Part shown: in pieces, positions 34,704 through 57,110 of the stretch
How positions within the stretch are numbered: the stretch's first letter is position 1
Layout: every line of letters starts with the position of its first letter
NCBI GenBank assembly: GCA_000004985.1
Contig: GG738852.1
Direction: 5' to 3' (one strand)
Length of the DNA: 64,000 nucleotides
From: Naegleria gruberi
Lineage: Eukaryota
The notes under the pieces: generated by a model
What the model saw: only the letters and a program-made list of their open reading frames with translations
Told to the model about the DNA's origin: nothing
Databases searched by the model: none
Translations under genes and position numbers: made by a program

Positions 34704-37700
34704 TTATTTCTTTCTTCTCTCAAAGAGATATGATTTCAGTAATGTTTGTTTCTCTTGCTTTTCTTCTTGTGACATGGTTTTCAAGGAAAGTTGTGCGTAT
34801 ATGCCAATGTAAGCAATCTCTGGTGATGGATGAGATGAGAGTTGGAATAGCAACTTTTTCACATCTTCAGGTACTGTTACTGTTCCGTCCTTTTCCAATG
34901 CAACTCTCTCTAAATAATTAAACACACTCTCTGGAAATTCGATTGTTTGTTTTAAAGATGTCAATTTCTTGTTAAGATCAAACCATTTCTTTGCAATTGT
35001 TGTTAATCTTTTTGTAGACGTATGGTCTCTCTTGTCCGAATGTACTTTATCCAAGTTGTAAAGCAGTTCATAGATTGAAATATCCCTTAATGCTAAATCA
35101 AAATTAATACTGATTCTATTATCTGAATTGCTGCATCGAACACTGCTTGAAAGGGATTTGGGGTGTTTAATGGAATCAATATACTTGACAGTGTAAAATG
35201 ATGTGTAAATGGTATCGATCTTTTTCCCGCGTTCCTCACCCTCAAAACAAGAAGGAAATCTGAGCTTGGCCAAAGAGATAGCATAAACCCCTGTAAGTAT
35301 ACAATTCTTAAATAAATCACTACCATGTAATGAATATTGTATCTTTTCTTGATTGATTTCAGTTAATCTTAATGAGTGTAAGATTTCAATTAAATATCCA
35401 GAGTATGTTTCAATGTTCTTCTTTGTACTGAGTCGAGTCAAAGTGGTGGGTTCAGTTAATCCAGGTCTTGTTTTCTCGTAATAGAAATATAAATCAGAAA
35501 TAATAAATCTCGATAATTTCAATAGGATAAGGCTCACTGAATCATATGAACTAAAAGGAATAATCCGGCTGTTAGAATTCAAGATTGACCTGACTGTTTC
35601 AATAATTTCTAATGTTTCGAATTCTTTAGAAATATAATAATCTGCGTAATCAACTGCATCTTGATTTTCTACTTTCCATGTAAGCTTTTTACAACCATAC
35701 AAATAGTTATCAACGGGTTGACAATTTGAAAATTTCCTGATATAATCCAATTCGGTGAGTATTTCAGATTCCAGAGATGTGCTATCAGTTTGTGTTTCTA
35801 TATATCCTCTAAATTGTCTTTCTTGTTTTTGATTATTGGTACCAATATTCAAACCAAGTTTCTCAAGTATGTGTAATTCTCTTGAATATTTAAACTTGTT
35901 GAATATTGAGAGAAGGTCAAAATACATGTCAATATTTAGTTTTCTATAAATCAATAAATGGTCTGCAAATTTTCTGTGGTTACTATTGAATAAAATTGAT
36001 AGTCTAATAGTCCACGAATGGATGTTTGATAGTTCTTCTTCATCAAGACCTTCTTCTTGTTCATCTATTTGTATCAAAGAATCCCACAATTCATAAATAT
36101 AATGAATGGAATTTTCATTGTGAGGATTATTGAAATACTTTTCAGTTTGGAAATAGAAGAGCTGAGTGAGATGATTGAATTTCTTCCATTTTGAAAGTAA
36201 TTTAACTATTTCATCAAAATGAATAGTCTTATCATTGTAAACACATTCAACCAAAAGATTTGAAAATTCTTTCTCTTGTTTTTCGTCCATATTATTTGTG
36301 TGAGCGTATGTTATTATATAAATATCAGAGGTTTCATCAATTTGAGCATTATTAATAAGGTCAAATGCCTTTTCATACTCTGATTTTCTAATGTAATAGG
36401 ATGCCAAATATTTCTTCCCATCATTGGAACCTAATTCGTTGGCTCTTGTCAAATGACTTTCGCACAAGTTTTCATTATTGGTTTCACTCGATTTGTTATT
36501 CACACAATTCTTAAAAAAGTAAATTCCTAATTTTGTGTTAGCTTTTGTGAAGATATCCATCTCCAAAATAGATAATGTTTTGGAGGTTTTGGGAATGTCT
36601 TGTATTATTTGGAAAATACCAAAACCAAGAATGGAATCACTTAAATACGAAATCGAATCTAATTGATTGTCTTCTCTTTCCATTAATTGCGTGATTAACA
36701 GCCGTAAACATTTGGCTGACAAATCACACATGAAAGGATGATAAATGTCATGTAGGTCCATAACCAAAGATGAGTAACACTCATTCTTTGGACCACAAGA
36801 AAAAGGTTGCAACTTTACAATGGTCTCAATAAGTGTCTTGTAAAAATTGAAGGAGTGATCATTTTCATTGTGTGATTTCTTCTCAATGTAAGTTGTTACA
36901 ATGTCACGGCATAATTGGATCACATTAATGGATTTTCTTGCACAAGAGTTTTCTTTGCATTCCAAAAAAACAGAAGCAAGAGTTTGTAATAACTTGAGCA
37001 CATACTTGTCATTGGTCATGTTGGGCGCATTAAAGAATAAATCTCTTGCATTCATGGTCAATAAACTTGCTTCTTTCACTTGACATTCACAACAACTAAA
37101 ATCTTTTACAAATTGTAAAAAATTATCAAACTCTTCATCAGCAAGGCTTGTTTTGACTTTTTTGTTTGGATGGAGAAATTCTTGATCCTCCTTTTCTTCA
37201 TCATCTTGATGCTTTCTTTTCAACAAGTTGTTACTTTCCAAATTATCCATTCTTTCTGCAATCACATCCTGTTTCTGTCTAATTTCTGTTAATACATTCA
37301 TAATATTCTGAAACATTTCGCTATGTGTATACATATTTGATGAGGTTGAAAGCATATCAATGAGGCTATCTGAACTTTCTGAATCAAATAATAAGCTGTG
37401 TTCTTGGCTATCGTCTTCTAATGGTGGAATAATAGTGTCCTTCCATAGAGGCGTTGGATTGTCCACTGGTTTTCCCCATTCAAATTGAGTGAGAATTCCA
37501 TTCATATCATTGGATTTATGTATGAAAATTACAAAACTGTTGCCATTGACACAGTTATCTGCTTTTTCAGTGATTGTTTCATAGGGACAAAAAGGTTCTT
37601 TGCTTAATTCACCATCTTCTTTTCTTATAATTTTGTATTCATAACTTCCAGAAGAGGACTCCAATAGATGTTTAAAGAAAAATTCTTCATCGTCCACATG

Positions 37701-38522
37701 AGAATAATCATAATAATCAAAAACTCCTTGATTCAATACCTCACCGAGAATATAAATTCTGTCATTTTGCAATTCCATACCATTTTTACAAAAAACAGTA
37801 TGGAAACAACGAACAGAAGAGTCCTCAGCTTGATCTGCCAATTTAAATTCAACTTCTCTTTTGTACCATCTATAACTAAAATATCTCAATTTTCCTGGCT
37901 CAATTTCTACTAGGTTTATGTCCCTCTTAGGACCATTGATTCTCTCTTTTGAGCTTGCACCACCAGAAGTTCTTCTTGTAGTCTTGTTCTTATTATTCTT
38001 GTGACAGGGTAACATTGATTTGTCAATATTTAGTTGGATAGAGCCTTCAAGATTAATTTCCTTTCTTGATTTGTTATCATCCTCAACAAAATATTGAGAT
38101 TCTGATTTAACATGGAGTTCATCTTCACTCTTTCTCGAATAACTGGAGATTATTAGATTCAAAGTCTTATTTTTGGATGGTATTTCGCTAATGTTAAATT
38201 CAATTCCCTCCTTCTTCTTTTTACTATTCTTTTCAATAAAATTGTAGACAGTAATACATTCATGATCCTGATTGATGCCTTCATATGCAATTTCCAAATA
38301 ATCATGTTTAACATTTGAAATGACAAGTTTCGGTTCACTGTGTTTTGCAATTTCCTCAACTTTTATCTGATATGAATTACTAGCCGAATCAGCAGGCAAA
38401 ATATAGGCCCACTCTGATCTTATATCAAACAATCTACAGGAAATACTTTCATAATTTTGAGTAAATCCCTCTTCTGTTGGCTCCCCGAGTACAATGTCTT
38501 TGGGTGTTTCTTTTCTTGCCAT
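34704..38522 (-). CDS. Large orphan protein (1272 aa), helical-repeat rich
   Basis: Single uninterrupted ORF with a real ATG (MARKETPKD). No identifiable catalytic motifs. Confidence 0.5.
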   Translation of the reverse strand: MARKETPKDIVLGEPTEEGFTQNYESISCRLFDIRSEWAYILPADSASNSYQIKVEEIAKHSEPKLVISNVKHDYLEIAYEGINQDHECITVYNFIEKNSKKKKEGIEFNISEIPSKNKTLNLIISSYSRKSEDELHVKSESQYFVEDDNKSRKEINLEGSIQLNIDKSMLPCHKNNKNKTTRRTSGGASSKERINGPKRDINLVEIEPGKLRYFSYRWYKREVEFKLADQAEDSSVRCFHTVFCKNGMELQNDRIYILGEVLNQGVFDYYDYSHVDDEEFFFKHLLESSSGSYEYKIIRKEDGELSKEPFCPYETITEKADNCVNGNSFVIFIHKSNDMNGILTQFEWGKPVDNPTPLWKDTIIPPLEDDSQEHSLLFDSESSDSLIDMLSTSSNMYTHSEMFQNIMNVLTEIRQKQDVIAERMDNLESNNLLKRKHQDDEEKEDQEFLHPNKKVKTSLADEEFDNFLQFVKDFSCCECQVKEASLLTMNARDLFFNAPNMTNDKYVLKLLQTLASVFLECKENSCARKSINVIQLCRDIVTTYIEKKSHNENDHSFNFYKTLIETIVKLQPFSCGPKNECYSSLVMDLHDIYHPFMCDLSAKCLRLLITQLMEREDNQLDSISYLSDSILGFGIFQIIQDIPKTSKTLSILEMDIFTKANTKLGIYFFKNCVNNKSSETNNENLCESHLTRANELGSNDGKKYLASYYIRKSEYEKAFDLINNAQIDETSDIYIITYAHTNNMDEKQEKEFSNLLVECVYNDKTIHFDEIVKLLSKWKKFNHLTQLFYFQTEKYFNNPHNENSIHYIYELWDSLIQIDEQEEGLDEEELSNIHSWTIRLSILFNSNHRKFADHLLIYRKLNIDMYFDLLSIFNKFKYSRELHILEKLGLNIGTNNQKQERQFRGYIETQTDSTSLESEILTELDYIRKFSNCQPVDNYLYGCKKLTWKVENQDAVDYADYYISKEFETLEIIETVRSILNSNSRIIPFSSYDSVSLILLKLSRFIISDLYFYYEKTRPGLTEPTTLTRLSTKKNIETYSGYLIEILHSLRLTEINQEKIQYSLHGSDLFKNCILTGVYAISLAKLRFPSCFEGEERGKKIDTIYTSFYTVKYIDSIKHPKSLSSSVRCSNSDNRISINFDLALRDISIYELLYNLDKVHSDKRDHTSTKRLTTIAKKWFDLNKKLTSLKQTIEFPESVFNYLERVALEKDGTVTVPEDVKKLLFQLSSHPSPEIAYIGIYAQLSLKTMSQEEKQEKQTLLKSYLFERRKK

Positions 38523-38918: not shown

Positions 38919-39890
38919 TTACATGCAAATACATTTCTTTTTCTTTAACATCATTACATCTTGTGAAATTACTTTTTTCAATAGTTCAACATCCTTCCAA
39001 GTTCCATATCTATATCTTTTAACACAATCTTCAAATAATTCATTCACGTTCTTCTCTACATTTGTATTTTTAACAAAACATGTTTCGAAAATTCCAACAT
39101 TATTCAATTTGAATTCCTTAATCATTTCTTGAATTTTTTCTCTCCAAAACTCAATTTGAGATTTAGAATCATCTCTATCAACCTTATTAATTGCAAATAG
39201 AATTGGAATATCAATTCGTTTTTCTTTCACTTCCAATAAAACAATAAGCTGTCGTCGTGTCTCAATGAATGAGTTTAGATCATTTTCTGACACTACAATG
39301 ACAAATGTTTCAACCTTTTCAATGTAGATTGGTCTCAATACCTCATATTCAGAATTTCCTTTCATCTCCAAAATATCAATATACACCATCTCATCGTCTA
39401 CACAAATTATCTTGTGCATGCTGTCTTCAATTACTTGGTCATGCCATCCCGATTGTAATTCCATTTCCAATTCTTTAGCGAAATATTGATTGACCAGTGT
39501 GGATTTACCACACCCTGATGGTCCAAGCATTAATACTTCAACCTTTCCCATTCTATTTGTTTCTCCATTAGAATGATTCATTTTCCTTTTACACATTCTT
39601 GTTAATATCACTTTTCTTTTTAAAGTTTTTGATACAATTAATTGTCTTTCCAATTCTTCCTCATGAAATAATTCCAAATTCACAACATCTCTTTTCAATA
39701 CATTTGACCAAAATAAATTAAAAACACTTTCCATGGCTTCAGATAATTCACGATTGAGAGATTGAAATTTTGCAATACATTCTATTTGCTCCTTTTTTGA
39801 ATAGAGTCCTTGTTTCCTATATTCAAAATCAATTGCAAATTTTAAAATGTGATGAAGAACATCATAGGAAAGTAATCCAGGTAATGTCAT
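38919..39890 (-). CDS. Atypical Ras-superfamily small GTPase with a ~120-aa N-terminal extension and a polybasic CaaX tail (KKKKCICM)
   Basis: G1 VLMLGPSGCGKSTLV, G4 INKVD, G5 ETCFVKN. A degenerate G3 (DILEMKG instead of DTAGQE). C-terminal CICM prenylation box. Confidence 0.55.
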   Translation of the reverse strand: MTLPGLLSYDVLHHILKFAIDFEYRKQGLYSKKEQIECIAKFQSLNRELSEAMESVFNLFWSNVLKRDVVNLELFHEEELERQLIVSKTLKRKVILTRMCKRKMNHSNGETNRMGKVEVLMLGPSGCGKSTLVNQYFAKELEMELQSGWHDQVIEDSMHKIICVDDEMVYIDILEMKGNSEYEVLRPIYIEKVETFVIVVSENDLNSFIETRRQLIVLLEVKEKRIDIPILFAINKVDRDDSKSQIEFWREKIQEMIKEFKLNNVGIFETCFVKNTNVEKNVNELFEDCVKRYRYGTWKDVELLKKVISQDVMMLKKKKCICM

Positions 39891-41319: not shown

Positions 41320-43495
41320 ATGGCAAATTCAAAGACCCACTCACCAGCCACCCTTGTGGTCTTGGTGATGAGTTGTTTCATGTTAATGACAATCGGAATG
41401 GTCCACTCTCTCAAACTCACTTCCTCTCTCGCCGATGATTTATTATCATCATCAAATTATATCGGGATGGAAAATAATCAAGAACATACCTCATTGAAGG
41501 TGATGAAGGCTCATTATGAGATGAAAGGCTGGAAGAGAATTCATCATCAAGATGATTTGATGAGATTATCTGGTAGTGAAAAGAAATCTATTGAAGAAAA
41601 GATTGAAAATCAAATGATTCATGTTACTTTTGCATTGAAGAATCAAAATGTTGAATTGTTGAGAAAGAAGGCAATTGCTGTCAGTACTCCAGGACATCCA
41701 GATCATGAAAATTATTTGACTATGGAACAAGTTGCTCAATATACAAAGCCATCTGCTGAAGATAGACAAAATGTCTTGCATTATATTAGTACTATTCCAG
41801 GAAGCATTGTTTTGAAGGTTTCAAAGCATGAAAACTTTATTGAATGTTTAATGCCAGTTTCCTCCATTAACAAGTATTTCAAGGCTGATATGAAGCCATA
41901 TATGCATCAAGAAAGTAAGACTGTCTTGTTGAGATCTTTGGAACAAGGTTATTCATTGCCAAAGGAAATTGCTGATTCAGTTACTTTGATTTCTGGCATT
42001 GTTCGTCTTCCAAGCATGGAAAATAGAGTCAAGATGACCAAGACAGCATCTGCTCAAGATGATGGATTGATTACTCCACAAGTTATTTGGAAGAGATATA
42101 ACATTACTGTTCCAACATTTGTTAGTTCAAACAGTTCTCAGTCTGTTGCTTCATTCTTGCAACAATATTATAGTGAAAGTGATTTGGCCTTGTTCCAATC
42201 TACTTATAACTTGGTTAGACAATCACCAATTGTTTATGGACCAAATGATGAATCCAATCCTGGTGTTGAAGCTTCTTTGGATATTCAATATCTTATGGGT
42301 GTTGGTTACAAGATTAGAACTACCTTTGTCTCAACTCCTGGTGTCAGTAATGTTACTGGACAAGAAAGATTCTTGTACTGGGTTACTCAACAACAACAAA
42401 TGGGTGATGCTTCTCCTTGGGTAAGTTCTTTTTAATTCACAATTTTTCATCTTAATACCTCATTTACAGGTTCATAGTGTTAGTTATGGAGACGATGAAT
42501 CTACTGTTACCAGAGCATTGGCTGATCAATTAGATATTGAATTTATGAAATTTGCTGCCACTGGACGTACAGTTATGGTATGTTGACAATTTCTTATTTA
42601 CCGATAATATTAACCAATCAATTCATAACAGATAGCATCAGGTGATAACGGAGCTCAATGTAATAATCAAGGAACCAAATTCTCTCCAACGTAAGTTTTT
42701 TACAAATTTTCCATGGTTTTACAATTTAAATAGTTGGCCAAATACATCTCCTTGGGTTACCTCTGTTGGTGCTACAAGACCATCAAGTGATTATTGGGAA
42801 AAGTCAGTTGACTGGAGTGGTAAGTTAACAATTTAATGACATGCTCATTCTTATAATATTCTTCATACTATCCCTTTTTAATTTAACAAATTAGGTGGTG
42901 GTTTTTCTTCTCTGTAAGTAATATATTGATTTAAATAATATAATATAACATATTTTAAAATAGTTACTCTCGTCCACAATATCAAAATGATGCTGTCGCC
43001 AAGTACTTGAAGACTAATAACATTCCTCCAGCCTCATTCTTCAATCCATCCGGTAGAGCTTATCCTGATGTCAGTGCTCTCGGTAAGTAGCTCAATATAT
43101 TTCCATCTCATTTCTTACATGTTATTTTTTAGGTGTTGAGTAAGTATATTCCAAAACAATTTATTTCTCATTTTCAAAATAGTTATCAAGTTTTCGTTGG
43201 TGGTTCCATTCAAAATGTTGCAGGTACTTCAGCAGCTTGTCCTTGTTTCGCTGGTGTTGTCAGTTTGCTTAATGATGCTCGTTTCAAAGCTGGTAAGAAA
43301 CCACTCGGATTCCTTAATATCTTCCTCTACACTCAAATTCCACAAAATCCAAAGGCCTTCTTTGATATCACTCAAGGTTATAATAGTGCTAGTCCTTGTC
43401 CTTATGGTTTCCCAGCTACTAGTGGATATGATGCCATTTCAGGTTGGGGTGTTCCTAATTTCCCAGTTTTGAGAGATCTTGCCTTGAAGAAATAA
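41320..43495 (+). CDS. tpp1: Tripeptidyl-peptidase I / sedolisin (S53, CLN2-like). Exons 41320..42420, 42470..42577, 42632..42687, 42734..42829, 42895..42913, 42964..43082, 43133..43139, 43183..43495
   Basis: Signal peptide and pro-domain. Catalytic Ser in GTSAACPCFAGVVSLLND. SGGGFSSLYSRPQYQNDAV, GRAYPDVSALG and DYQVFVGGS are collinear with human TPP1 (GGGFSNVFPRPSYQEEAV / GRAYPDVAALSDGYWVV / GTSASTP). All introns have GTAAGT or GTATGT donors with phases checked. Confidence 0.85.
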
Positions 43496-43676
43496 TTTGA
43501 CAGATCTATGAATGTTTAAGTTTCCAATAAACTATTGGAAAATGTTTTACTGTAAAATTTAGCATTTAAAGATTAAATCTCTCTTTAATCCAAGTACTCT
43601 CTAAAAAAGGAACCAGAATTATGAAAGAAACTGAAAGTGATGGGAAGAAACTAAAGACGAAACCAAACTAAAAAAA

Positions 43677-45785
43677 ATGTTCTCCTCCAACAAGGCTCTC
43701 GAAGGTGAAATCAGTGATTCACCCCGTAGACATTCTCTCAATATTACGAGTTCTCTGACGGTCAACCCTCCAAAGGCAGCACAATCACTCAATTCAGAGC
43801 AAATGAAAGAGATGAAAAAAGAGAAACGAATTCCTTCGATTCTTCCGAGTAAATTGATGAAATTCAAGACGAAATCATCCGATACATCATGTAGGTTCAC
43901 TATTTACCTCCCTTTCGAATAGTTCGAAAAATTTCGAATATATTTTATTTCGAATAACAGTTGATAAACAAGAATTGAAACAATTATTGGAACAATTTAC
44001 CGCAATCGATGCCAATCAAAAAAAGAATGGACAAATCAGTTTACATGAATTTCTCGTTTGTCTCGGAAGATTAAACGGAAATGAAGATTGCATACTTGAC
44101 AATTGTCAGGCAGATGTCGTTCTAGGAAAGATTTTATTCAGAGCTTTCGATAAAGATAACAGTGGTTCAATTGATTATCGTGAATTCTTAGCAACAATGG
44201 CAATTCTTTCAAAAGGAACAATTGAACAAAAATTGGAATTTGCATTTTCAATGATTGATTTGGATAATGATAAGAAATTGAGTAGAGAGGAATTGCAGAA
44301 AGTTATCGTAGCTCTCTATAAGGTTTTACAATCTTTGGGGTTGAATAGTATGCCAGATCCAATTGTTTATGCCAACAAATTGTTTGATGATATGGATGAG
44401 GATAAATGTGGATATTTGACTTTGGAGGCGTATAAGAAGGGGGCTACGAGGAATTCTAATGTTTTTCTTGGAATGGGATTGTTGGAAAATTCGGATAATG
44501 AAACTATAGGTAGGTTTGAGATTCAAATTTTTGAAATCAATGTGAAATAGAATTTGATGAAAATGGAATCAAGTTACTGAATGAAACTGATTTGAAAAAT
44601 AGAAGTAGCAATGATCCTTCCAAGGCACCTGGTAAAATTATTGGATTTGGAAGTAAAAAGTGGAATTTATGTTTAAATATGATGATTGGCATTCGTCTCT
44701 CCTCTGATTGCATTGGTTCAATTGATCAGAGAGATGTTAGAATGGAAGATTTCAGTGTGAGACTCATGTTTAATTTACCAAAAGATTCCAATAGAAATAT
44801 GACTAATCCAGAGCTATCTGAAATTGATGAGGAGGAAGATGTTGGAGCTACATTTATTGATTATGCACCTTTCGTATTCAAACACATTAGAAAAATGACT
44901 GGAATCAGTGAGGATAGTTACATGATGAGTTTGGGACCTGAACAATTATTGGGAGGTCTCTTATTGGGAAGTTTGTCAACTCTTTCGTGTTCCATATCAG
45001 ATGGTAAATCAGGTTCATTCTTCTTTTATAGTAGTGATCGTAAATTTATGGTCAAGACAATTTCAAAGTCTGAAGTGGCATGTTTGAAAAGAATCTTACC
45101 ATTCTATTACAATCACATGATTTCGAATCCAGATTCTTTAATTGTCAGAATTTTGGGTTTCCATGAAATGGTAATTGACAATGAAAAGTTTAACTTTATT
45201 GTAATGGGAAGTATTTTCCCACAATCAAGATCGATTGACGAACTCTATGATTTGAAAGGATCAACTCATGGAAGAAAGAATCCAAATGGATTTTGTAAGA
45301 AGGATCTCGACTTGATTGAGAAGGAAAGAAAATTCAAAATTGGAAATGAAAACAAACTATTGTACATGAAAATCATTGAGAAGGATGTTGAATTTCTCTC
45401 AAAATGTAATTTATTGGACTATTCACTATTGGTTGGAGTTTGCAATGCTTCGAGAAATATCAAACAAGATCAAGAAGTTGGAATTAATGTAAACTTGGTC
45501 GAAAGTTCTCCAAGAAAGAATAGTGGAAGTCTTGCTGGTTCCAGATTTTCCAGAAGAAACAAGTGTGTCTGTGGAATTCCAAGTATTGATATTGCAAGAG
45601 AATTGCAAGACGATGGAGAAGTGTACTATATTGGAATAATCGATATCTTGACAGAATATAATAGAAAGAAGGAAGCTGAACACACTTTGAAGAGTATCAC
45701 AAACAAATCGGATACTATTAGTGCCATTCCTGCAAAGCCGTATTCTGAAAGATTTTTCAAATTCATGCATCAATGTTTCGAATAA
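43677..45785 (+). CDS. NCS/recoverin-like 4x EF-hand domain fused to a phosphatidylinositol-4-phosphate 5-kinase (PIPK) catalytic domain. Exons 43677..43890, 43961..44509, 44551..45785
   Basis: EF loops DANQKKNGQISLHEF, DKDNSGSIDYREF, DLDNDKKLSREEL, DMDEDKCGYLTLEAY. PIPK core: GKSGSFFFYSSDRKFMVKTIS, ILPFYYNHM, LIVRILGFH, DLKGST, LLDYSLLVG, GIIDILTEY. The 41-nt intron (GTAGGT..TAG) joins the EF-hand exon to the kinase exon in frame. The kinase exon has no ATG of its own. Confidence 0.75.
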
Positions 45786-45822
45786 TAAATGATATGAAAA
45801 TTTTGTACAAAATTTGGTGATT

Positions 45823-47364
45823 TTAATCTTGATTAATTCTAGTTCTGTGTGGTATTGTAATTCTGTAACCTTTTTGTAACTCCCCTATTTCTTTACCTGT
45901 TCCTCCAGTTACCATTGCATCATCGTCAAAGAAGAAAAAGCTAGTCTTGGAAAGTGCCTTGTACTTTTGGTTTTCAGGTTCCTTAATCGATTTGGCATCA
46001 AATACCATATCATAAATGTGTAAAAAGTCATAATCCTCCCTTCCTGTATCACTAACCCAAAAGTTTTCAATCTCTGTCGATCTTTCCAAGCTGTACTTTT
46101 TAGCAAATCCTCCAATAATTGATAAATGTGAAATAGTAATACCAAAAATATCTAATTGAGCTCTAGATTTAAATTCAATAGCTTCGTTATTTACAATAAA
46201 CTCAACCTCTTCCTTGGAAACTTGAAGTGAGGTAGCAACTTCTTCAATCCAGTTTGGATTATTCACAAACACATCAGCTGTTTCCTTAATAATTGACTTG
46301 ACTGCCTTGGAATAAAAGTATTTCAGTCTATATTGGCCTCGCTTCAACTCTTCAAAATATCCATACTTATTAGAAATGACACTATCTAAATTCAATCTCG
46401 ACAATACAGCCGAAACAAAATGTTGACTATTACAATTGGATTCGTCATAGTAATGTTTGCCGTTATATTTACAGCAAACTCTAGCAATATTAATAAGAGC
46501 CATTGAGACTTTCTTAGTTCCTTCAATCTTGGAGATGGGAACCAATTTTAATTTTCTTCTATTTGTATGTGTTCTGATATTACTGACAACATGCCTAGAT
46601 GAAGACCAAAAGAGGACGGCAGTACCCACTTGAAGAGCTAGAGGTAAAATGCCTTCTCTTTCCTCTCCCATGGTATTGAAATCTTCCAAAAAGATGAGTC
46701 CAATATTTAAACTGCTCATAGCAGCGGATTCTTTTGTAAGCTCATTCATTGATAGGAATACATCCAATACGAATCTGTCTGGAAGAATCAAGTTTTGTAT
46801 TTCTGCATTCGTCAAGTGTTCATTTCCTGTAAAATTACGTTTAGTTTGTTTAAACAGGGTAACATTCTCACGTTCCTCACTCGTAAGCACATCATCATCC
46901 CAGACACTTTCCAGAACTTCTATCGATTTCTCCAAGTTGATTCCATGAATGGCATATGATTGTTGAGTTGGTGATAAATCCTTTCCAGCATTACGCAAGT
47001 TAGAAAATGACGATGATGGATAGAGTAAATGATGGTTTTGACTGGTCATGTTAGGTAGAGAATTTACAGCAACAATTGGTTGTGCACTTGTTTCAATATT
47101 TGGTGGCAAATCCAAGTTTCGTTGAATTACATCAGGTGATGAGATGGATGCTTTTGTACTACTCGCAGTAATGGAACTATTGATGAAATTTTGTGTGGTT
47201 GATGTAGATCCTCCCTTCTTACATTTCTCAATGTATTTTAATAAATCATCCATGGTTGGCTCGTCGAAATGTTCCAAACCTTCCTGACGAGCCTCCATTC
47301 TATTCGAAACCATCTCAGACCTACTCACTGCAGATTCCGAATAACAAGGAAAAGGCTGACCCAT
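45823..47364 (-). CDS. Hypothetical protein, possibly with a PPPDE/DeSI-like permuted-papain domain
   Basis: The His..NCNSQHFVSAVL arrangement is reminiscent of the PPPDE H/C dyad. Weak. The ORF track start is TTG; the first ATG gives MGQPFPCY. Confidence 0.35.
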   Translation of the reverse strand: MGQPFPCYSESAVSRSEMVSNRMEARQEGLEHFDEPTMDDLLKYIEKCKKGGSTSTTQNFINSSITASSTKASISSPDVIQRNLDLPPNIETSAQPIVAVNSLPNMTSQNHHLLYPSSSFSNLRNAGKDLSPTQQSYAIHGINLEKSIEVLESVWDDDVLTSEERENVTLFKQTKRNFTGNEHLTNAEIQNLILPDRFVLDVFLSMNELTKESAAMSSLNIGLIFLEDFNTMGEEREGILPLALQVGTAVLFWSSSRHVVSNIRTHTNRRKLKLVPISKIEGTKKVSMALINIARVCCKYNGKHYYDESNCNSQHFVSAVLSRLNLDSVISNKYGYFEELKRGQYRLKYFYSKAVKSIIKETADVFVNNPNWIEEVATSLQVSKEEVEFIVNNEAIEFKSRAQLDIFGITISHLSIIGGFAKKYSLERSTEIENFWVSDTGREDYDFLHIYDMVFDAKSIKEPENQKYKALSKTSFFFFDDDAMVTGGTGKEIGELQKGYRITIPHRTRINQD

Positions 47365-48416
47365 TTTCTCTTTCAAAGCCTAGTTGACTCAATATGTACA
47401 CTATAGAAGCAACACGAGCCTCTACTTTAATATTATTATTATATAAATTGATTTACTACTAGTAAGTAATTTTGGTAATCTCCTCTCAGAACAAAAACAG
47501 GCTAATTTTTCTCTCCTCCTTCGTTTCTGCTCTTTTCTCGCTTGTTGCTTGTTGTATTTTTGTTGTTTTTTTTTTGGTTTTTTCTCCCCCAAAAACAACC
47601 GCAGACTTGCCGTTATCAGCACCTAATATCAATTATCAAAGCCTGAAAATAAAAATAACAGCAACGAGAGACAAGATTATCGATATTGTTATTATTAGCA
47701 TTGCATCATCACCATGAGCAGAAGAATTTCTGCAACATCATATTATTCATACAACTGAATGATGGCATTTCGTATCTTTAACCAACAGGTCACTCCAAAA
47801 TGTTCATCAAAATGCACAATTAGCAAGTGAAAGGTGAAAGATGTTTCGAATAAGGAGTGAGTGATGAAGAATGCATAGTAATTGGTAATAGAGAACATAC
47901 ATTGTGGTGAGAGATGGGTATTTTTCAAAGTTTGAGTGTCTAAATATGAAATGTTGTAAACTATTGTTAGATGAGTGAAGAAAAGAATGATTCGTAAACG
48001 AAGGGATTGTAGATTAAACAAGATGGAGAAGGATTAATATTGGGATAGAGTTTGAATAAATGATGACTGTTCTCATTAACTGGTAAAAGAAGGAGAAGAA
48101 AGTTTATTAGAATGTAGAAGGAGGGTCACAGGATTTCGAATATTATTGGAATAGTGTATTCGAACTGTTCGCCATTTATCTAGATGCGAAAACTGTTCAT
48201 TGGAATGGAGAAATGCTAGAATGTTTCCAAGTGATTCTTTCCAATATTGATTATTTCGTTTCGAATGGAAAGGTTTCTCTTTAATGACTAATAGTACACT
48301 AACATATTCTCTACAGCACATTTATTTGCCTGATTGAACAAGTTTGTTAAGCATTTCCAAATAAATGTTTGTTAAAACTGTTGTACTGGATAACGATTAA
48401 AATTCAAAAAAAGAAA

Positions 48417-48696: not shown

Positions 48697-51600
48697 TTAA
48701 GGGAACATGATGAGTGGCATTGAGTATTCCTTTTCATTTCTGAGAATGGATAAACATTGAGTGAGGAATTTTGTGAGTTTGAGTTCAGGAGCAGGTTCTG
48801 GTGATGATCCAGTGCTTGAAGTATTGCTGGTGAGAGGTTGCATTGGAAGAGAGGTTGTTTCACTCCAATAACATTCATACATTACCATGAGGAATTCCAC
48901 AAATTTTCTATAGCAACCATCTGGAACAAAGGTCATCATGCTTGATGGGAGAGATTGAGTGATTTGAAGATGAAGTGAAGTGGCATCTAATAGGTCAGTC
49001 CAAGGGAAGAGGAATACAGGATACTGATCATCTTCTATGGATGATTCGACTGATTTGATAACTCGTGGAATGTCAGAGAGCACTTTGGATAATTTCAAAA
49101 ACTCAATATGTTCGTACTTTTTCTTGTATGATTTGCTTGATGGTTTCTTTCCGTATTTTACAATTGGAATGTGGAATGGCATGTTGATTTTAACATCATC
49201 ATTTTCTCTAGTTTCACATGTTGGTACTAGATGGAGCTTTTCACACATGACATTACTCCAAATCCAGTACTTTCTCTCATCCTCTGCTGATTGAATAAAT
49301 TTAGGATCGTCACTAGAGTAAAAGCAAAAGAATTTTGGTCTTGTCTTGTTTTTTGGAACGAAACCAGATTCCACTCGCTTCTTACTTCTCGTTAATATAT
49401 CCCTAATTGACATGCATCTTACTGCATTCTCCTCAAATATTAATTCCCAAGGAATTGCTTGCAGAGAGGTTGGAGCAATGAGAGTGATAGGTGTCGAAGG
49501 AGTTGGAATCATTTCTGGTTTTGGCATTGGAACACTCTTCTTTTTTGTAAAAGTACTCGTTTTTTGATTCATACTGGAGCAATAGTTAAACTTGTCAAAT
49601 CCATTCCTTTTCATATATTCAGCATTTTCCAAAAATTGGACAGGATCAGGTTTGTACGAAAGAATGTCGTTGATTGAGGAGAAGTGGTCTTTCAACATGG
49701 CAATGTTGGACTTGTTCATGATCTTTTCCTTCTTATCTCTCATACTCTCTGTGATTATTGCCTTGATAAATTCAGACATGCTAACATCTTCTGTTTTTTC
49801 CATGCTATGAATGGTCTTGTAAAAGATATTGGTAGATACGGAACCAAGGAGTCTACTGAAGGAAGCATTAGGATCAAAAGTATCATTTACCTTTGCTACA
49901 TCATGCTCAGTATTCAGGAAAAGTTTACCTCCAAATGATACAAACTTTTTCTGCAACAAGTTAGGAATGTAAAAACTAATGACATTATCAAAATGTGAGA
50001 GGAGAACAATTCTTTCAAAGCATTTGGTTTTCTTCAATTTCTTAAAAGCACGTTTAAGAGGAGTGAGACATGGGGCTAGGGAAGCTTGCTTTTGTACATT
50101 GGCATTGTGGGTATTAGCGTCTATTACTTGCAAATTCATAGTATTCTTCAATGTTCCTGAAATAAGCACACCTTTAGACTCATTGAATGTTGACAGCAGT
50201 GACTCTACTACAGATTTATCACCTGGAAGTAATGTCAAATTGGATGAATCTAATAACTCTATGGAATTAATAGTCTTTGTACTGTCATTTGAAAGTTTGG
50301 AGCTCTTGTTGTAGAATGATCTCTTTTTGTGAGTTGAGAGTTTGCTTTCTCTAACAGCATTCATCAAGTTATACAATCTTCTCATGGATTGTTGATTCTT
50401 AAATCTCAATTGACCATCAATTTCTCCTGGATATTTTCTTCTATCAAACTTCATACTCAACAAGCAATAGAATAATCTTTCACAAACTCTGTGCTTGAGA
50501 TGTGTTCTGTGAGAGTCTTCTTTTGGTTCGATTTTATAGGTGGCATCCAGTGAGGACTTTAGAGTTGGTGATCTCAACATGGATGAAAAGGAAAATCCCT
50601 TGAGGGGCAATGTTAATGTTGATGGAGTGTTCACTTTGTTAAGACCTTCATACGGCTTGTTTTTATCCAATAATTCTGGATCAATGAAACAGGAAATTCT
50701 AGTGACCTTGGCATCATTTTGTTCAATGGAGAGACAGGTAGGTTCTTGAGTTCTCTTCAATGACATTTCATATTCCATTGATAATATGTAGAATGTATCA
50801 AAAACTCCAATATTGGTATTAATGAAGGTAGTTTCAAAGAGTAGCAATAATCTAACACAACGTTTCAAGAGTAGTAGAATTTTTTCTAGCATTGCAGGGG
50901 TAGCTCCACTCGAAACAACAACCTGAGAACTATTGTCAACAAAGAGAGTAAAGAAAATGTCTCGCATTTCACACCAATACTTTTTAGAACTGTGTGTTCT
51001 TCCTTGGAGATATCTGCATTCGGCTGCAGTTAAATTCACATCCATACACATAAATACATCAGATGCAGTTACAGCAACATCAAGTGTTGGTTCAATATAA
51101 TCATTAAATACTTCTTCAAGGTCAATGTATGTCATTTTTGAATCATTGGAACATAGATCAAGATAATCTTCTGGCTTTTTAGACATGACAGTAACTGGAG
51201 TAAACATATAGTCAACCAAGACTTGGGCGATCAAAATGTCCATCTTGGCTAAGCTAATCTCATTCGAACAGGCTTCATAATATTTCTTTGCTTTTTGGAA
51301 GCAATCTACAGAGTCAGAAATAATTATAGCCAAAGAATCATAAACAGGTCTCTTGGAATAGAGATATTTTTCCTTTGGTGCATCTCTGAGAACTTCTGAT
51401 TTTTGAATCAGTGTCAAAATTGAAAGCCTATCTTTCTCTGATGGTATCAATTCATTTGGGAAAGATATTGGATGACTCCATTTGGCAACACTCATCAATA
51501 TTTTTCCTTTCAGTTTGAAGAGTTGAGCCAGTGTTGAAAATGTTCTATTGCACCTATAGAGAGCAATGTTGATTGTCTCAATGGAGTTTCCAAACATTGA

Positions 51601-54600
51601 CCTCTTCATATAGTACTTGGTTATAATTTCTAGTAACCTCATTTCTTGTTGTTGCTGAAGTTGCATAAAGTTATTCTCCATAATCATTTCCAATTCTTTT
51701 AAAACCCTTTCACATTCCTTGAACCATTTCTTTTTTAAATAGGCCTCAGCCAGAGTAATGTAGAGATCTGGATTTTTGATAGAGAGTGAAGATTGAATGA
51801 GGCCAAGGCAAATATTGACACATCTTTCTAAATTTCCACCATTTAAGAGTAATTTAGCATAATCAATTTCAAGTTCCATCTTGAAATCAAATGATGATGA
51901 GAGGGATTTGATCGTTTCCAGAGCATCTCTTTTAACTCTCTCAGCATTTCTGAATTCACCTTTTTCCATAAATAAGGCAGATAATTTTGAGGAAATATTT
52001 GCAATTACTGCCACACGTTTGTCACGGCAAGCTTTTTCATTCAGGATGGTATAATATCTGATGGATCTACTCCAATCATCACTCTTAACGGCAAGGGCTG
52101 CCAACTCATCAATAAACTTGTAGTCATGATCTGAGGAGAGAAGTCTATAGTTTTGAGTGTACATCTCGTAAATAATTGATGCATACTGTGGCTTTCTGTT
52201 TGAATAGAGGGCGTCTCCAAATTTTCTCATTGCTTTAAGTGCTTCTGCACTTACAATTGTTGGAATTCCCACACAAAGAGGAGGACATTTTTGGAATAGA
52301 TAAACACTTTCAAAAAGTGCACACTCTCCAAGTCTGGTCATGTCAGAATCACCCTGTTTGGCCCAAAAAGATCCCAACGAATAAGCTACATAGGCTTTGT
52401 TCTTTGAGATACCCATTCTACTGTAAAATTTGCTGAACATGACAGCAATTCTCTCGTGAGAACTTAATAGTGGATGTCTGAATTGAGGTATCCATGTCTC
52501 AGAGCCAGCATGTTTTCTCAATGTAGAATCATACAATTCTAATAATGTTACAATTAGTGCTCCACAGTCACACAAGCTTGGGAAGCTAAAATAGGGGGAA
52601 TTGAATGTGGTACCCATGGTTGAGGAGCCAACAAAAATAGGTGCATCCCTAATCTTTTGATCAACTACAGAGTAGAAGAGTGCATTATTTTCCATTCCTT
52701 CCTCTGGTATGTCAAAGACTTCATTGAAAATCATGGCCAAAGTGGTAAAAACTTCGCTAATACTGTCAAAATCAGGGAACATGCCAGTTTCTAATTGGAA
52801 TATGTGGTACTTGATTTGAATTTCACATTGGAGAACAATAATGCTTGCTCTCTGAGTTGGATAAGCATTGAACAGCAGGGAAATCATTTCAGTATATTGA
52901 GCACTCTGTTTTGGATCTTCCAAATTGAATAATCTTGTAGAATTTGCACTTTTCAATAAATCTACACAAATGTGAAAGAGGTATGCTCTCTCATTTAGAG
53001 CGAGTTTGTTAACAACTTCAGGTGTCATATTTTCGAAAAATTTAACCAGAATACTCTGAGTAGTAATTTGCTCCTTTGCAATATGAATCAGTCTGTAACA
53101 AATTTCATAGAAATTCTCAATAAACTCCATTGAAAAGTCATAGCTTTGCACTCTCTTCTCCAACCTCGAGAGGAGAAAATTTGTTAAATCATCTCTAGAG
53201 CAAGAGTCAATCACATTCTGATCTTTGACTTTTTTAGGTATTAGAGATTGAAACCACAGCAACAATTCACGTTTTCCTTCATGGAATGATTTTCCACCAA
53301 TCAATCCTTTAGTTAAAACAACTTCTGGTAGCATTAGCTCTTCCTTGTAAGTCCTCGATTTAAAGAGTCTATACTTGTTAGGGAAGAATTCTTCTTCGAA
53401 AAGATCATTTTCTTCATCTTTAGATTCCCTGTCGTCTGTTTTATCTCCAAATAAAATCCCAGCCAATGAAGATTTTGGAGCAGAATTAAAATCAATTTCA
53501 TCTCCCCAATCACTCTCACTATCACTTTCATCACTATCCTCTTGCCACTTGGATTTCTTTGGAAGATCGGTATTGGTTTTTTCTTTTTGCTCGATTTCTT
53601 TCAGAACCTTGTCCATCTTTCCATAAATTTCAAGTTCCAATTCACTAAAGTTTTCACTACATGCATCTTCAGGCATGTCAATTTCCTCCATAGATGAAAA
53701 AATCAATGTACTTCCCTTTCCAAGTCTGTTGACCAAATGTAAAACTCGTTTTGCCAATTCCATTTCAGAAAGAGCTCGCAAACAAATACCCATATAATAT
53801 ACAATCAAGAGAAAAACTTCGAGATTTAACACAGAGACAAAACCTGTCGAAGTGTACGACGTCAAATCACGAAGAGCAGGCACAAGAAATGATGCCAATA
53901 CCTTGTACAAGTATTTCTTTTCACTAATTGTCATTTCGAGACTATTAAAAGTAGGTTTGATAATCTCACTCATATCTTGTGAATTGATCATTTCCTCTGC
54001 CAAACACAGTAAAATTTCTGAATGTAAAATCCGTGTGGACAGTACAATAAATGATGGTGAATTTGAGCAAATAAAATCAGATGGAGCAACAGATTGCAGA
54101 AGAGCATCAGTTTTCTCCTGTGCACTTTCCAGATATTCATTTGCATCGTCAACTTTTTTCTTTTGTTTGAGGATAATGGATTTGAGGAATAGACATTTCG
54201 AGTGTAGCAGTTCAATTTTTGGTACAAATTTACCATATTGATTATTGGTGGCCAACTCCTCAACCCTAGACAGTTGGGCAAAAGATTCGGCAAACTGTTT
54301 GTGTTCTCTGTGAATTTGAGCAATTTCCAATCGTTTTGTCATTTCATTAGCAAGAAGTGTTTCATACTCTTCTGTTGTTGCACATGTTGGATCCCTATCA
54401 TCGTCCTTATAGTATTTTCCAATTAAATTATCCAATTGTTCGTTCAAAACTCTGACATCTCGGAAGAGTGACCACTTTTGATCTAAAACAATTGTATTGG
54501 CATCACCGTAACCATTATGTAAATCCAAAATCCTCTCTGTTTCAGCTCCCTCCTCAATAACACTATTCAAATCATGATCCGACTCTGTTTTAGAATTACT

Positions 54601-55148
54601 CTTATTGGTGATAATGTAGGTGATATTCTGTTGGGGATTTAAACTCACAAATGATACATTGGGTGAGAAGTTTGAATTCAATCCGGCATAGGTTGTTGTA
54701 GTAATTGTTGAGGCATCAGAGAGAAATCTATTGTGATACTTGTGTTGATGTTCCTTCAGGGACCGATGTTTGGTTTGTGTTGCTGTTGTATTGTTATTAT
54801 TATTATTGGATGATGAGGTAATATTGATTTTAGAGTCATCACTAACGGATAATGAAATTGATTTAGTTACACTCAACATTTGCTTCTTCCGATCTTCCTC
54901 TGATTGTATCCAAAATTGAGGAAGTTTAGATTGGTTCTTGAAGAATGTTGCTTGGATGGGAAGGATGGGTCGTAAATCGTTACATTTTTCAGCTAATGAT
55001 ATTAAAGATGATGATGAACACAAATGTTTCTCCTTTTCTACTGCTTACCTGCTATTACGAAAGATTCGATAAATTGAATTTCTAGAGCCAGTTGCTCGTT
55101 GAGTTGGTCGAATGATGTGACCGTACTGGCTGATTGTGTTCTTTGCAT
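48697..55148 (-). CDS. Giant TPR/helical-repeat protein (~2140 aa) with a 5' mini-exon. Exons 55148..55049, 54992..48697
   Basis: The 6-frame ORF begins with TTG. Upstream exon MQRTQSASTVTSFDQLNEQLALEIQFIESFVIA ends in a phase-1 GTAAGC donor. A 56-nt intron (54993..55048) joins it in frame to ..AEKCNDLRPIL. TPR-like blocks around 51.0–52.5 kb. No catalytic signature found. Confidence 0.6.
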
Positions 55149-55344: not shown

Positions 55345-57110
55345 CTAGTACTCAGGACGTGAAGATATTCTAATCGTTAAATCTGAGAAATGATTAAAGA
55401 TAGCTCTGGAAAAGCCCTTTCTTTTACCAGGTAATATAAACATGGAACGAATGGTTCCTTTGCTATACATCATACTCGTTGTGTCATCGTAAATAGTTCT
55501 GTACAAGAGGTGAGAGAGGTGGGAAACATACTTCTTGATAACAGACTCTGGTTCATTTTGTCTGTGAGCAAAATCCAACCTCATATCACAAATTAGTAAG
55601 GCATTTTCAATATTAATCGGAACATCCACTCCAATAAAACCTTCAATTAATGGAACATATTGACATGATCTGGCAAAGAGGAAATAATCACACTTCCTTT
55701 CCAATAGTTGAGGAACACCAGTATTCCAAGCTCTACATATTTGAATGTAGGGACTGACAACTTTATCCTCTCCTTGTGCCAAAGTATGATATTCCAATTT
55801 GTAGTAAATTTCTGTTAGTATATCTTCTATCAGTTTCGCCTTGTCTGTTAATCTTTTATGTTCTCGATACTTTTCTGTAATAATACTATATGCTTCATCA
55901 CTTGTTATTTTTTCAATCATTTTCTTTACAACGTCTCTCTTAGCTTCATAGGCATAATATATTGAAAGAATATCGTAATAAGGTTGGGAGTGTGTGATAA
56001 CACTTGTTAAATCATCAAGAGCAAGATCCAATCTTCCAAAATGCCTATAGATAGCTTCTCTTTGTAGGTATGTATTTGCGTCACTGAAAACAACTCCTGA
56101 CATAGATTTGTACTTTCTTGTCATTATTATTGATATTGTAAAAAATTTGAGTGCCTTTCTCAAGAGTTTTTCCTTTTCTTCCTCACTAGTATTTTCATCG
56201 TTAGCAATGTGGTAACATGATTGTCCAATCATTGATGGAATTTTAACCTTGTAATAAGGATTGAGTATAATTTTTCCCCTTTCAATTTTTCTCTTTTTTC
56301 CACTTGATTGTTTAGATGATCTGAATTCTGGAGGAAGTTCAGATTTATAATCACATTCTCTATTAGATGTCATTTTCCAAATAGCCATCAATTCCTCCAA
56401 GGCTTTAGGAAATTGGGAATTATAATAATGATGGTAACCAATAGAATAATGTGGTTCAACTTCTGAATAGTAAAAGTATAATCTCTGATCATCACTACCA
56501 ATATTTAACTTTTCCAACCTTTGTTGTACCTGTTTGTCAAAGTAATCCTTCTGGGTTTTTGCTGAATTTAATAAAGTTTCTGCAGGTGCAAAATTAGCAT
56601 TTACAATATGTTTCCAAGCTTGGAATAAAGTAATTATCCAATTCGGATATTCCAAAATATCAGGACTCTTATGTGATGCTTTTTGAATTGATAAAATCAT
56701 TAAACTCTTATCCAAATCACTCTGTGCTAATTTTCTCAATTCCTTGTGGAAGTAACTAACTTGATACCACTTTGAAAAGATGAATTCCGATATCGGAAGT
56801 AGAAATAAATTAAATCTGAATCTATTCGTCCAATTTTACATACCCAAGGTATCCATTTTGCTCTCTGAAATTGTGGTTGATAATTTGTACTATTTTCATT
56901 GATACATTGATTTAAAATTCCTAAACTCTTATTAATAAAATTGTCTCTTCTTAAAAACTGTTGCTCGCACAACAAGGATTCCATCTGAATATTACCAGTT
57001 GAGAAGGTATTTTCCGTTAGGAAGGGACACTTCTCCAGTAATTTGTCTAGCGTATCAACTTCATCACTTTTTGTTGTTTCACCACCGAAGAACACTTGTC
57101 TTAAAAACAT
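55345..57110 (-). CDS. Hypothetical protein (~560 aa). Exons 57110..56844, 56769..55345
   Basis: Two ORFs in different frames are joined by a 74-nt intron (GTATGT donor, CAAAG acceptor, phase 0). This gives ..AKWIPW|WYQVSYFHKELRKLAQSD... Real ATG (MFLRQVFFGG). Confidence 0.5.

Follow-up and report, generated by a model that had tools for sequence, protein, structure and literature searches.

The stretch of DNA analysed here (the window) comprises 64,000 nucleotides (nt) of Naegleria gruberi contig GG738852.1, assembly GCA_000004985.1. Its positions 43677-45785 on the plus strand almost certainly form a single gene that joins a neuronal calcium sensor (NCS)-like EF-hand module to a phosphatidylinositol phosphate kinase (PIPK). 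When the window sequence is spliced as three exons, the result is a 1998-nt coding sequence without an internal stop, which encodes 665 residues. We propose that the product is a PIPK/NCS enzyme that would convert phosphatidylinositol 4-phosphate (PI4P) to phosphatidylinositol 4,5-bisphosphate (PI(4,5)P2), with Ca2+ bound at the second and third EF hands (EF2 and EF3) controlling the kinase; for this whole statement, mechanism included, we put the probability at roughly 0.6. The architecture has been known since 2009 in malaria parasites and is found in ciliates as well; what is new is that the gene model of N. gruberi is corrected and that the family proves more widely distributed.

The gene model was built as follows. 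Exon 1 (43677-43890) encodes residues 1-71 and the first base of codon 72, forming a Ser/Lys-rich N-terminal extension; the protein starts MFSSNK, without a Gly at position 2, and its start codon is the first after an in-frame TGA at 43638. The conserved motif IPSILPSKLM and the sequence TSFDKQELK align with IPSLLPSKLL and TSFDKEELK in N. lovaniensis. Intron 1 (43891-43960; 70 nt, GTAGGT..ACAG, phase 1) is removed to recreate Phe72, and it is supported because the spliced DTS-F-DKQELK matches TSFDKEELK of N. lovaniensis and EVFDKEELK of Willaertia; in Willaertia magna the frame changes just ahead of FDKEELK, that is, at the point of N. gruberi intron 1. Exon 2 (43961-44509) carries the NCS-like four-EF-hand module (residues 73-250) and the start of the linker. 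Intron 2 (44510-44550; GTAGGT..ATAG, phase 1) lies in the sensor-kinase linker. Exon 3 (44551-45785) supplies the remainder of the linker (to residue 282), the complete PIPK domain (residues 283-665) and a TAA stop. The window has a GC content of 33.6%. Short introns look ordinary in it: those of the gene next to this one measure 50 and 43 nt.

A preliminary description of this locus had already joined an NCS-type module in frame to a PIPK in one gene, through a 41-nt intron at which a phase-1 G plus AA recreates a Glu codon. This is borne out by the stop-free 665-residue product, in which the junction G/AA of intron 2 recreates Glu255, and by relatives in which the junction is uninterrupted. 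The same description expected that retention of the 41-nt interval would bring a TGA in frame, which is not what the sequence holds: on retention the EF frame gains 13 codons and then meets TAG at 44548-44550, and the TGA at 44532-44534, inside the intron, is the upstream stop that bounds the exon-3 frame. Its statement that the kinase exon has no ATG of its own is right in essence, with the qualification that an in-frame ATG does occur at 44679 (Met298). This first ATG of exon 3 lies downstream of the conserved kinase motif FGxxxW (F287, G288, W292); an independent kinase ORF (open reading frame) would thus be truncated, and a stand-alone kinase starting from the internal Met is unlikely.

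The covalent linkage is carried by comparison with relatives. The closest full-length homologues, N. lovaniensis (66% identity), a metagenome protein from ENA (66%) and Willaertia magna (49%), all combine EF hands with a PIP5K domain. A Naegleria-like metagenome contig (L003), genomic and carrying genes on both strands, matches residues 73-665 in a single unbroken frame at 929-2719; in Willaertia (L002) a single ORF runs from EF3/EF4 via the linker and the kinase to the stop codon. Because both encode the EF-to-kinase junction uninterrupted, the fusion has support beyond predicted splicing, and by comparative sequence it appears settled as real without transcripts. N. lovaniensis (L001) has a linker intron (...ACGAGAG/GTATGT...CATAG/AAAATGG) that is of phase 1, is split G/AA and lies within about three codons of N. 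gruberi intron 2. The intron content of this orthologue differs widely among Heterolobosea: past the N-terminal extension, introns number about four in N. lovaniensis, one in N. gruberi, one in Willaertia (inside EF3) and none in L003, as counted over L001 4001-6899, L002 4001-6914 and L003 890-2722 against window positions 43677-45785. The neighbouring ORFs of the window gave no tblastn match in L001-L003 when synteny was looked for.

In GenBank this gene is represented by two consecutive accessions on one 938,756-bp scaffold. XP_002680696.1 (EFC47952.1), a 145-residue 'predicted protein, partial', is 100% identical to the translation of 44113-44547; it ends ...ETIGRFEIQIFEINVK, which means that it reads through intron 2 into the TAG at 44548-44550. 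XP_002680697.1 (EFC47953.1), a partial protein of 261 residues, is 100% identical to 44997-45779. Both models cover little beyond the domain cores and lack a start codon, and the kinase model lacks the last residue and the stop as well. The open frame of the annotated kinase fragment extends upstream of it and encodes there a conserved N-lobe (residues 283-400). XP_002680696.1 and XP_002680697.1 are fragments of the single 665-residue gene. Searches with each domain by itself returned them, whereas a search with the full-length protein did not, so that a sequence missing from such a search need not be missing from the database. These identical accessions, together with best homologues in Naegleria and Willaertia, also place the DNA in N. 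gruberi and not among the Dictyostelia, as had been assumed at first.

The kinase domain is complete, as the preliminary description had it. Pfam PIP5K (PF01504) matches residues 397-662 of the spliced protein (E=7.9e-78; 262 bits vs a cut-off of 27) over profile positions 5-287 of 288, and all catalytic motifs are present. Among solved structures in the PDB, the region matches PIP4K2B and PIP5K1A with E values from 5e-35 to 9e-32. The glycine-rich loop GKSGSFFFY (residues 406-414) and the catalytic-lysine motif MVKT (Lys423) are encoded at 45003-45059; G406 and K423 are invariant in both an 11-sequence and a 35-sequence alignment, K407, S408 and S410 are invariant in the former, and these three together with G409 are nearly invariant in the latter. 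The catalytic-loop motif LDYSLLVG (residues 543-550; 45414-45437) has D544, Y545, S546 and G550 nearly invariant. The metal-binding GIIDILTEY and the activation loop NRKKEAEH...PYSERF (45633-45755) follow, with D619, K628 and E631 nearly invariant. In the HMMER alignment, Glu631 of KKEAEH is placed opposite the Ala just before His in KKAAH of PIP4K2B. Kunz et al. in 2002 reportedly swapped specificity by exchanging an activation-loop Glu (type I) and Ala (type II), and we take the position of Glu631 to be this type I/type II specificity determinant.

An AlphaFold model was available for a proxy, the 66%-identical, intron-free metagenome protein P0002 encoded on L003. It has a predicted local distance difference test score (pLDDT) of 80 and a predicted template modelling score (pTM) of 0.84; the linker (188-217) is modelled as disordered, with pLDDT <50. 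Compared with PIP4K2A crystal structures, the model reaches a target-normalised template modelling score of up to 0.84.

The EF-hand module is of NCS type. Several EF-hand families of Pfam are found in the spliced protein, EF-hand_7 with E=2.9e-16 and EF-hand_1 in two stretches only. Searched against the PDB, the module (residues 72-255) matches hippocalcin, neurocalcin, frequenin and NCS-1 best (E about 1e-20), and the top 26 matches consist of these proteins and KChIPs plus one calcineurin fusion construct (E 1e-20 to 2e-15). After the KChIPs come separate calcineurin B and CDPK chains, recoverin (E about 1e-12) and GCAPs, and calmodulin is weaker. A ranking led by NCS proteins justifies the label 'NCS-like' and agrees with the recoverin/NCS-type nature first assigned. 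We suggest calling the module NCS-like without counting it among the NCS family proper. It is joined to a kinase and is not a small stand-alone protein. The N-terminal myristoylation consensus (Met-Gly) is absent from the MFSSNK start, and the module begins only at about residue 73, after an extension of about 70 residues. A Cys-Pro (CPxG) substitution that disables EF1 is a hallmark of the NCS family; CPxG is not present in the EF1 loop DANQKKNGQISLHE, which is degenerate through a 2-residue insertion instead.

The four loops were called with a PROSITE-type canonical pattern and by alignment to hippocalcin, and four canonical loops, as initially described, are not what is found: only EF2 and EF3 are canonical. 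The EF1 loop (44008-44049) has 14 residues and fails the pattern; it is longer by two residues in P0002 and Willaertia as well. The EF2 loop DKDNSGSIDYRE (44149-44184; residues 135-146) is canonical and matches the pattern, and so does the EF3 loop DLDNDKKLSREE (44257-44292; residues 171-182), canonical apart from a Lys at position 6. The EF4 loop DEDKCGYLTLEA (44395-44430) is degenerate and fails the pattern, with Cys at position 5 and Ala at position 12; in the alignment with hippocalcin DTNNDGKLSLEE, this Ala stands for the position-12 Glu. EF2 and EF3 are both canonical in N. gruberi, N. lovaniensis, the P0002/L003 protein and Willaertia, at 49-68% overall identity.

Based on these features, we propose the following mechanism. 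The protein consists, in order, of the Ser/Lys-rich extension of about 70 residues, the NCS-like four-EF module, a probably disordered linker of about 30 residues and a complete type-I-like PIPK domain. The enzyme would convert PI4P to PI(4,5)P2, as suggested by Glu631 at the type I position and by the activity measured for the Plasmodium relative. Binding of Ca2+ at EF2 and EF3 may change the conformation of the sensor, and hence the activity of the kinase or its association with the membrane, so that the supply of PI(4,5)P2 would be coupled to Ca2+ signals in cis. The missing Gly2 rules out a Ca2+-myristoyl switch, and the sensor would have to act via intramolecular or partner contacts. Such hard-wired Ca2+ control of the kinase is a plausible idea.

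The N-terminal extension also contains RRHSL (43725-43739), which is a basophilic (PKA/PKG-type) phosphorylation consensus; the N. lovaniensis extension has a similar HRWSLN, in different MAFFT columns. The localisation of the Plasmodium enzyme is PKG-dependent (PMC3942320), and in light of this parallel the RRHSL sequence is suggestive.

The fusion had at first been taken for an undescribed architecture. It is in fact that of PfPIP5K/NCS of Plasmodium falciparum (PF3D7_0110600), reported by Leber et al. 2009 (Int J Parasitol 39:645) as cited in passages of later papers (PMC10543664, PMC3823935), with relatives in all apicomplexans and in ciliates. According to the account in PMC10543664, PfPIP5K/NCS carries an NCS-like EF-hand domain at its N-terminus and a type I PI4P 5-kinase at its C-terminus; it phosphorylates PI4P, and Arf1 activates it. 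Ca2+ has already been suggested to modulate its synthesis of PI(4,5)P2 (PMC10543664). Leondaritis et al. 2013 (PMC3823935) described relatives in all apicomplexans, Tetrahymena and Paramecium, called the group alveolate-specific and mentioned, as unpublished data of their own, that a Ca2+ ionophore raises phosphatidylinositol bisphosphate (PtdInsP2) in Tetrahymena. Brochet et al. 2014 (PMC3942320) point to these motifs in the enzyme of P. berghei as well; it resisted genetic disruption and hence may be essential. In a literature search we found no paper that ties Naegleria to this kinase/EF-hand fusion; one paper on PIP4K/PIP5K evolution has N. gruberi in a table only and leaves EF hands unmentioned.

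The distribution of the fusion is wider than these descriptions. Hidden Markov models (HMMs) of the EF and kinase regions were built from an alignment and scanned over 167 collected proteins. The NCS-like module was found in 70 of 166 kinase-domain proteins and lies upstream of the kinase in 68. Among Heterolobosea the fusion occurs in Naegleria, including N. lovaniensis, in Willaertia magna and in Acrasis kona; among alveolates, in the ciliates Paramecium and Stentor, the apicomplexans Cyclospora, Eimeria and Theileria, and the dinoflagellate Effrenium. It is also present in the stramenopile Blastocystis and the haptophyte Prymnesium parvum. For 52 kinase domains a neighbour-joining (NJ) tree was computed from 320 columns; every sampled EF-fused PIPK falls in one clade of 38 sequences, six of which have no detected EF module, and this clade stands apart from fungal, oomycete and MORN-PIPK sequences with a bootstrap of 95/100. 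The N. gruberi kinase domain thus shares a clade with the alveolate EF-fused PIPKs. Naegleria and Willaertia group at 100/100, and Acrasis is placed apart from the other heteroloboseans.

The single EF-fused clade favours one origin of the fusion. N. gruberi, the other Heterolobosea, Blastocystis and Prymnesium all lie outside Alveolata and Apicomplexa; we read the published taxonomic restriction as too narrow, with the N. gruberi protein still a PIPK/NCS member. We tentatively suggest, as a possibility that we would not yet favour in full, that the fusion arose before the alveolates, as an ancient single-origin subfamily across Discoba (Heterolobosea), SAR (alveolates and Blastocystis) and Haptista (Prymnesium), which in Naegleria may have kept a clean two-site (EF2/EF3), myristoyl-independent Ca2+ switch that would gate PI(4,5)P2 synthesis.

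Several points weigh against a Ca2+-controlled, PI(4,5)P2-forming enzyme. The N. gruberi gene model was drawn from genomic and comparative sequence, with no other source, and the public annotation holds two separate partial models. Type I and type II solved structures score about equally for the kinase domain, and the substrate call leans on one aligned residue and a distant relative. NJ was the sole method used for the tree, and its comparison sequences are fungal, oomycete and MORN-PIPK, with metazoan and plant outgroups left out. Canonical loops are in the minority across the EF-fused family, with 28 of 65 proteins having one at EF2 and 17 of 65 at EF3, and none is present in Acrasis kona; such frequent degeneracy indicates that the module can persist without canonical Ca2+ sites. 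Finally, Ca2+ modulation of the family 'has not been directly tested' in the words of Leondaritis et al. 2013 (PMC3823935), and no member has ever been shown to depend on Ca2+.

Three other explanations need to be considered. First, the fusion may be real while its EF module works independently of Ca2+, in a structural, dimerisation or targeting role; it might be a docking site for a partner, say, or a constitutive regulatory lobe packed on the kinase. The family-wide minority of canonical loops and the degenerate EF1 and EF4 of the N. gruberi protein itself both speak for it, and the pTM of P0002, high despite the disordered linker, is compatible with a fixed packing of the two domains, though this is a hint only. 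However, all ligand positions of EF2 and EF3 are kept in N. gruberi, N. lovaniensis, the L003 protein and Willaertia at the identities given above, which argues for selection on Ca2+ binding in the Naegleria/Willaertia lineage, and two functional sites are enough for the Ca2+ switch of recoverin. We regard a Ca2+-independent module as rather unlikely, and retain Ca2+ control through EF2 and EF3 as the reading to be preferred.

Second, regulated retention of intron 2 could yield a free NCS-like sensor of 268 residues next to the fused kinase from one locus. The early in-frame stop after just 13 extra codons, the location of the intron exactly in the inter-domain linker and the N. lovaniensis intron of the same phase at nearly the same place would all suit such a switch; but the intron is missing from the L003 organism and Willaertia, so that the switch cannot be a conserved feature, and short introns (43-70 nt) look ordinary in this window. 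A retention switch is in our view very improbable. Third, there could be two genes, as annotated: one for a stand-alone EF-hand protein whose frame continues over the 41-nt interval as far as the TAG at 44548, the other for an independently transcribed PIP kinase. This is hardly credible. GenBank does list XP_002680696.1 and XP_002680697.1 separately, but both models are partial, the conserved N-lobe lies in open frame ahead of the kinase fragment, that frame is closed by the TGA within the intron and has no ATG before Met298, L003 and Willaertia have neither intron nor stop at the junction, and 68 homologues share the collinear fused architecture. The single fused gene is thus the model that we carry forward.

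Several features of the neighbouring sequence were recorded. Upstream of the fusion gene lies a sedolisin/tripeptidyl-peptidase-1-like gene (41320-43495, plus strand) with an apparent 7-nt micro-exon, GTGTTGA (43133-43139), flanked by GTAAGT..TAG introns of 50 and 43 nt (43083-43182 in all). Only the micro-exon model keeps the frame, giving ...PDVSALGVDYQVFVGGSIQNVAGTSAACP and a gapless alignment to human TPP1 (3edy_A, E=8e-32); with one intron of 100 nt in its place the frame is lost. Downstream, a convergent ORF of 517 residues (45823-47376, minus strand) has no Pfam match. Between the stop codon of the fusion gene (45783-45785) and the stop-codon end of this ORF there are 37 nt (45786-45822), so that the 3' untranslated regions must either be extremely short or overlap. 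The ORF at 38919-39890 (minus strand) encodes a Ras/Roc-like small GTPase that carries an N-terminal extension of about 115 residues. No Pfam domain was found at E<=1e-4 in the ORFs at 48697-55023 (minus strand, 2108 residues), 34704-38522 (minus strand, 1272 residues), 55345-56739 (minus strand, 464 residues) and 57185-59281 (plus strand, 698 residues), and scanning the window for tRNA genes and Rfam families gave no hit.

The overall gain is modest. The reference annotation is corrected, in that two adjacent N. gruberi partial 'predicted proteins' become one enzyme of 665 residues. An architecture repeatedly termed alveolate-specific or unique to Apicomplexa is now found in Heterolobosea, a stramenopile and a haptophyte. 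Its apicomplexan uniqueness had been taken as parasite-exclusive regulation of PI(4,5)P2 synthesis; the wider distribution makes this argument weaker and places the origin of the fusion much further back. The Naegleria version is compact: its linker is short, two of its EF loops are intact and large insertions are absent. It would be convenient for the biochemistry of Ca2+ control. If the fusion is indeed ancient and the Ca2+ switch has been kept, the free-living, culturable N. gruberi would be the simplest system in which to test the Ca2+-to-PIP2 feed-forward link proposed for the essential malaria enzyme.

Four known systems can be compared with the N. gruberi protein. Recoverin is likewise built on a four-EF-hand fold, and of its four sites EF2 and EF3 alone bind Ca2+; it is a stand-alone protein of about 200 residues that works by a Ca2+-myristoyl switch and whose EF1 is disabled by Cys-Pro. 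The module of N. gruberi is like it in the pattern of canonical EF2 and EF3 and differs in having neither Gly2 nor CPxG. NCS-1/frequenin and PI 4-kinase IIIbeta (Frq1-Pik1 in yeast) likewise couple an NCS-type EF-hand protein to a phosphoinositide kinase, which there belongs to an unrelated kinase family with the PI3K/PI4K fold. In N. gruberi, the sensor is covalently fused, is not myristoylatable and sits on an enzyme of the PIPK fold, whereas Frq1-Pik1 regulation is in trans, by an N-myristoylated stand-alone sensor (PMC10543664).

The ciliate PIPK1 group (Tetrahymena TtPIPK1a-d and TtPIPK6, and eight Paramecium genes) consists of EF-hand type I PIPKs grouped with PfPIP5K/NCS (PMC3823935). 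Its Paramecium members, and those of Stentor, are homologues at 31-37% identity with the same architecture as in N. gruberi, but the ciliate proteins have an EF-kinase linker of about 100-200 residues, often containing coiled-coil regions (PMC3823935). The alveolate-specific label given to this group (PMC3823935) is contradicted by the heterolobosean, Blastocystis and Prymnesium members. PfPIP5K/NCS with its apicomplexan orthologues (e.g. TgPI4P5KA) is organised like the N. gruberi protein: an N-terminal NCS-like EF module and a C-terminal type-I-like PIPK lie on one polypeptide, a single clade holds the kinase domains of both, and the same Ca2+-to-PI(4,5)P2 hypothesis has been put forward (PMC10543664, PMC3942320). 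The apicomplexan proteins are much longer, at about 850-1120 residues among those collected, with large insertions inside and after the EF module and more degenerate EF loops; the N. gruberi protein, in contrast, is compact at 665 residues, with a linker of about 30 residues, two clean canonical loops and a free-living heterolobosean host.

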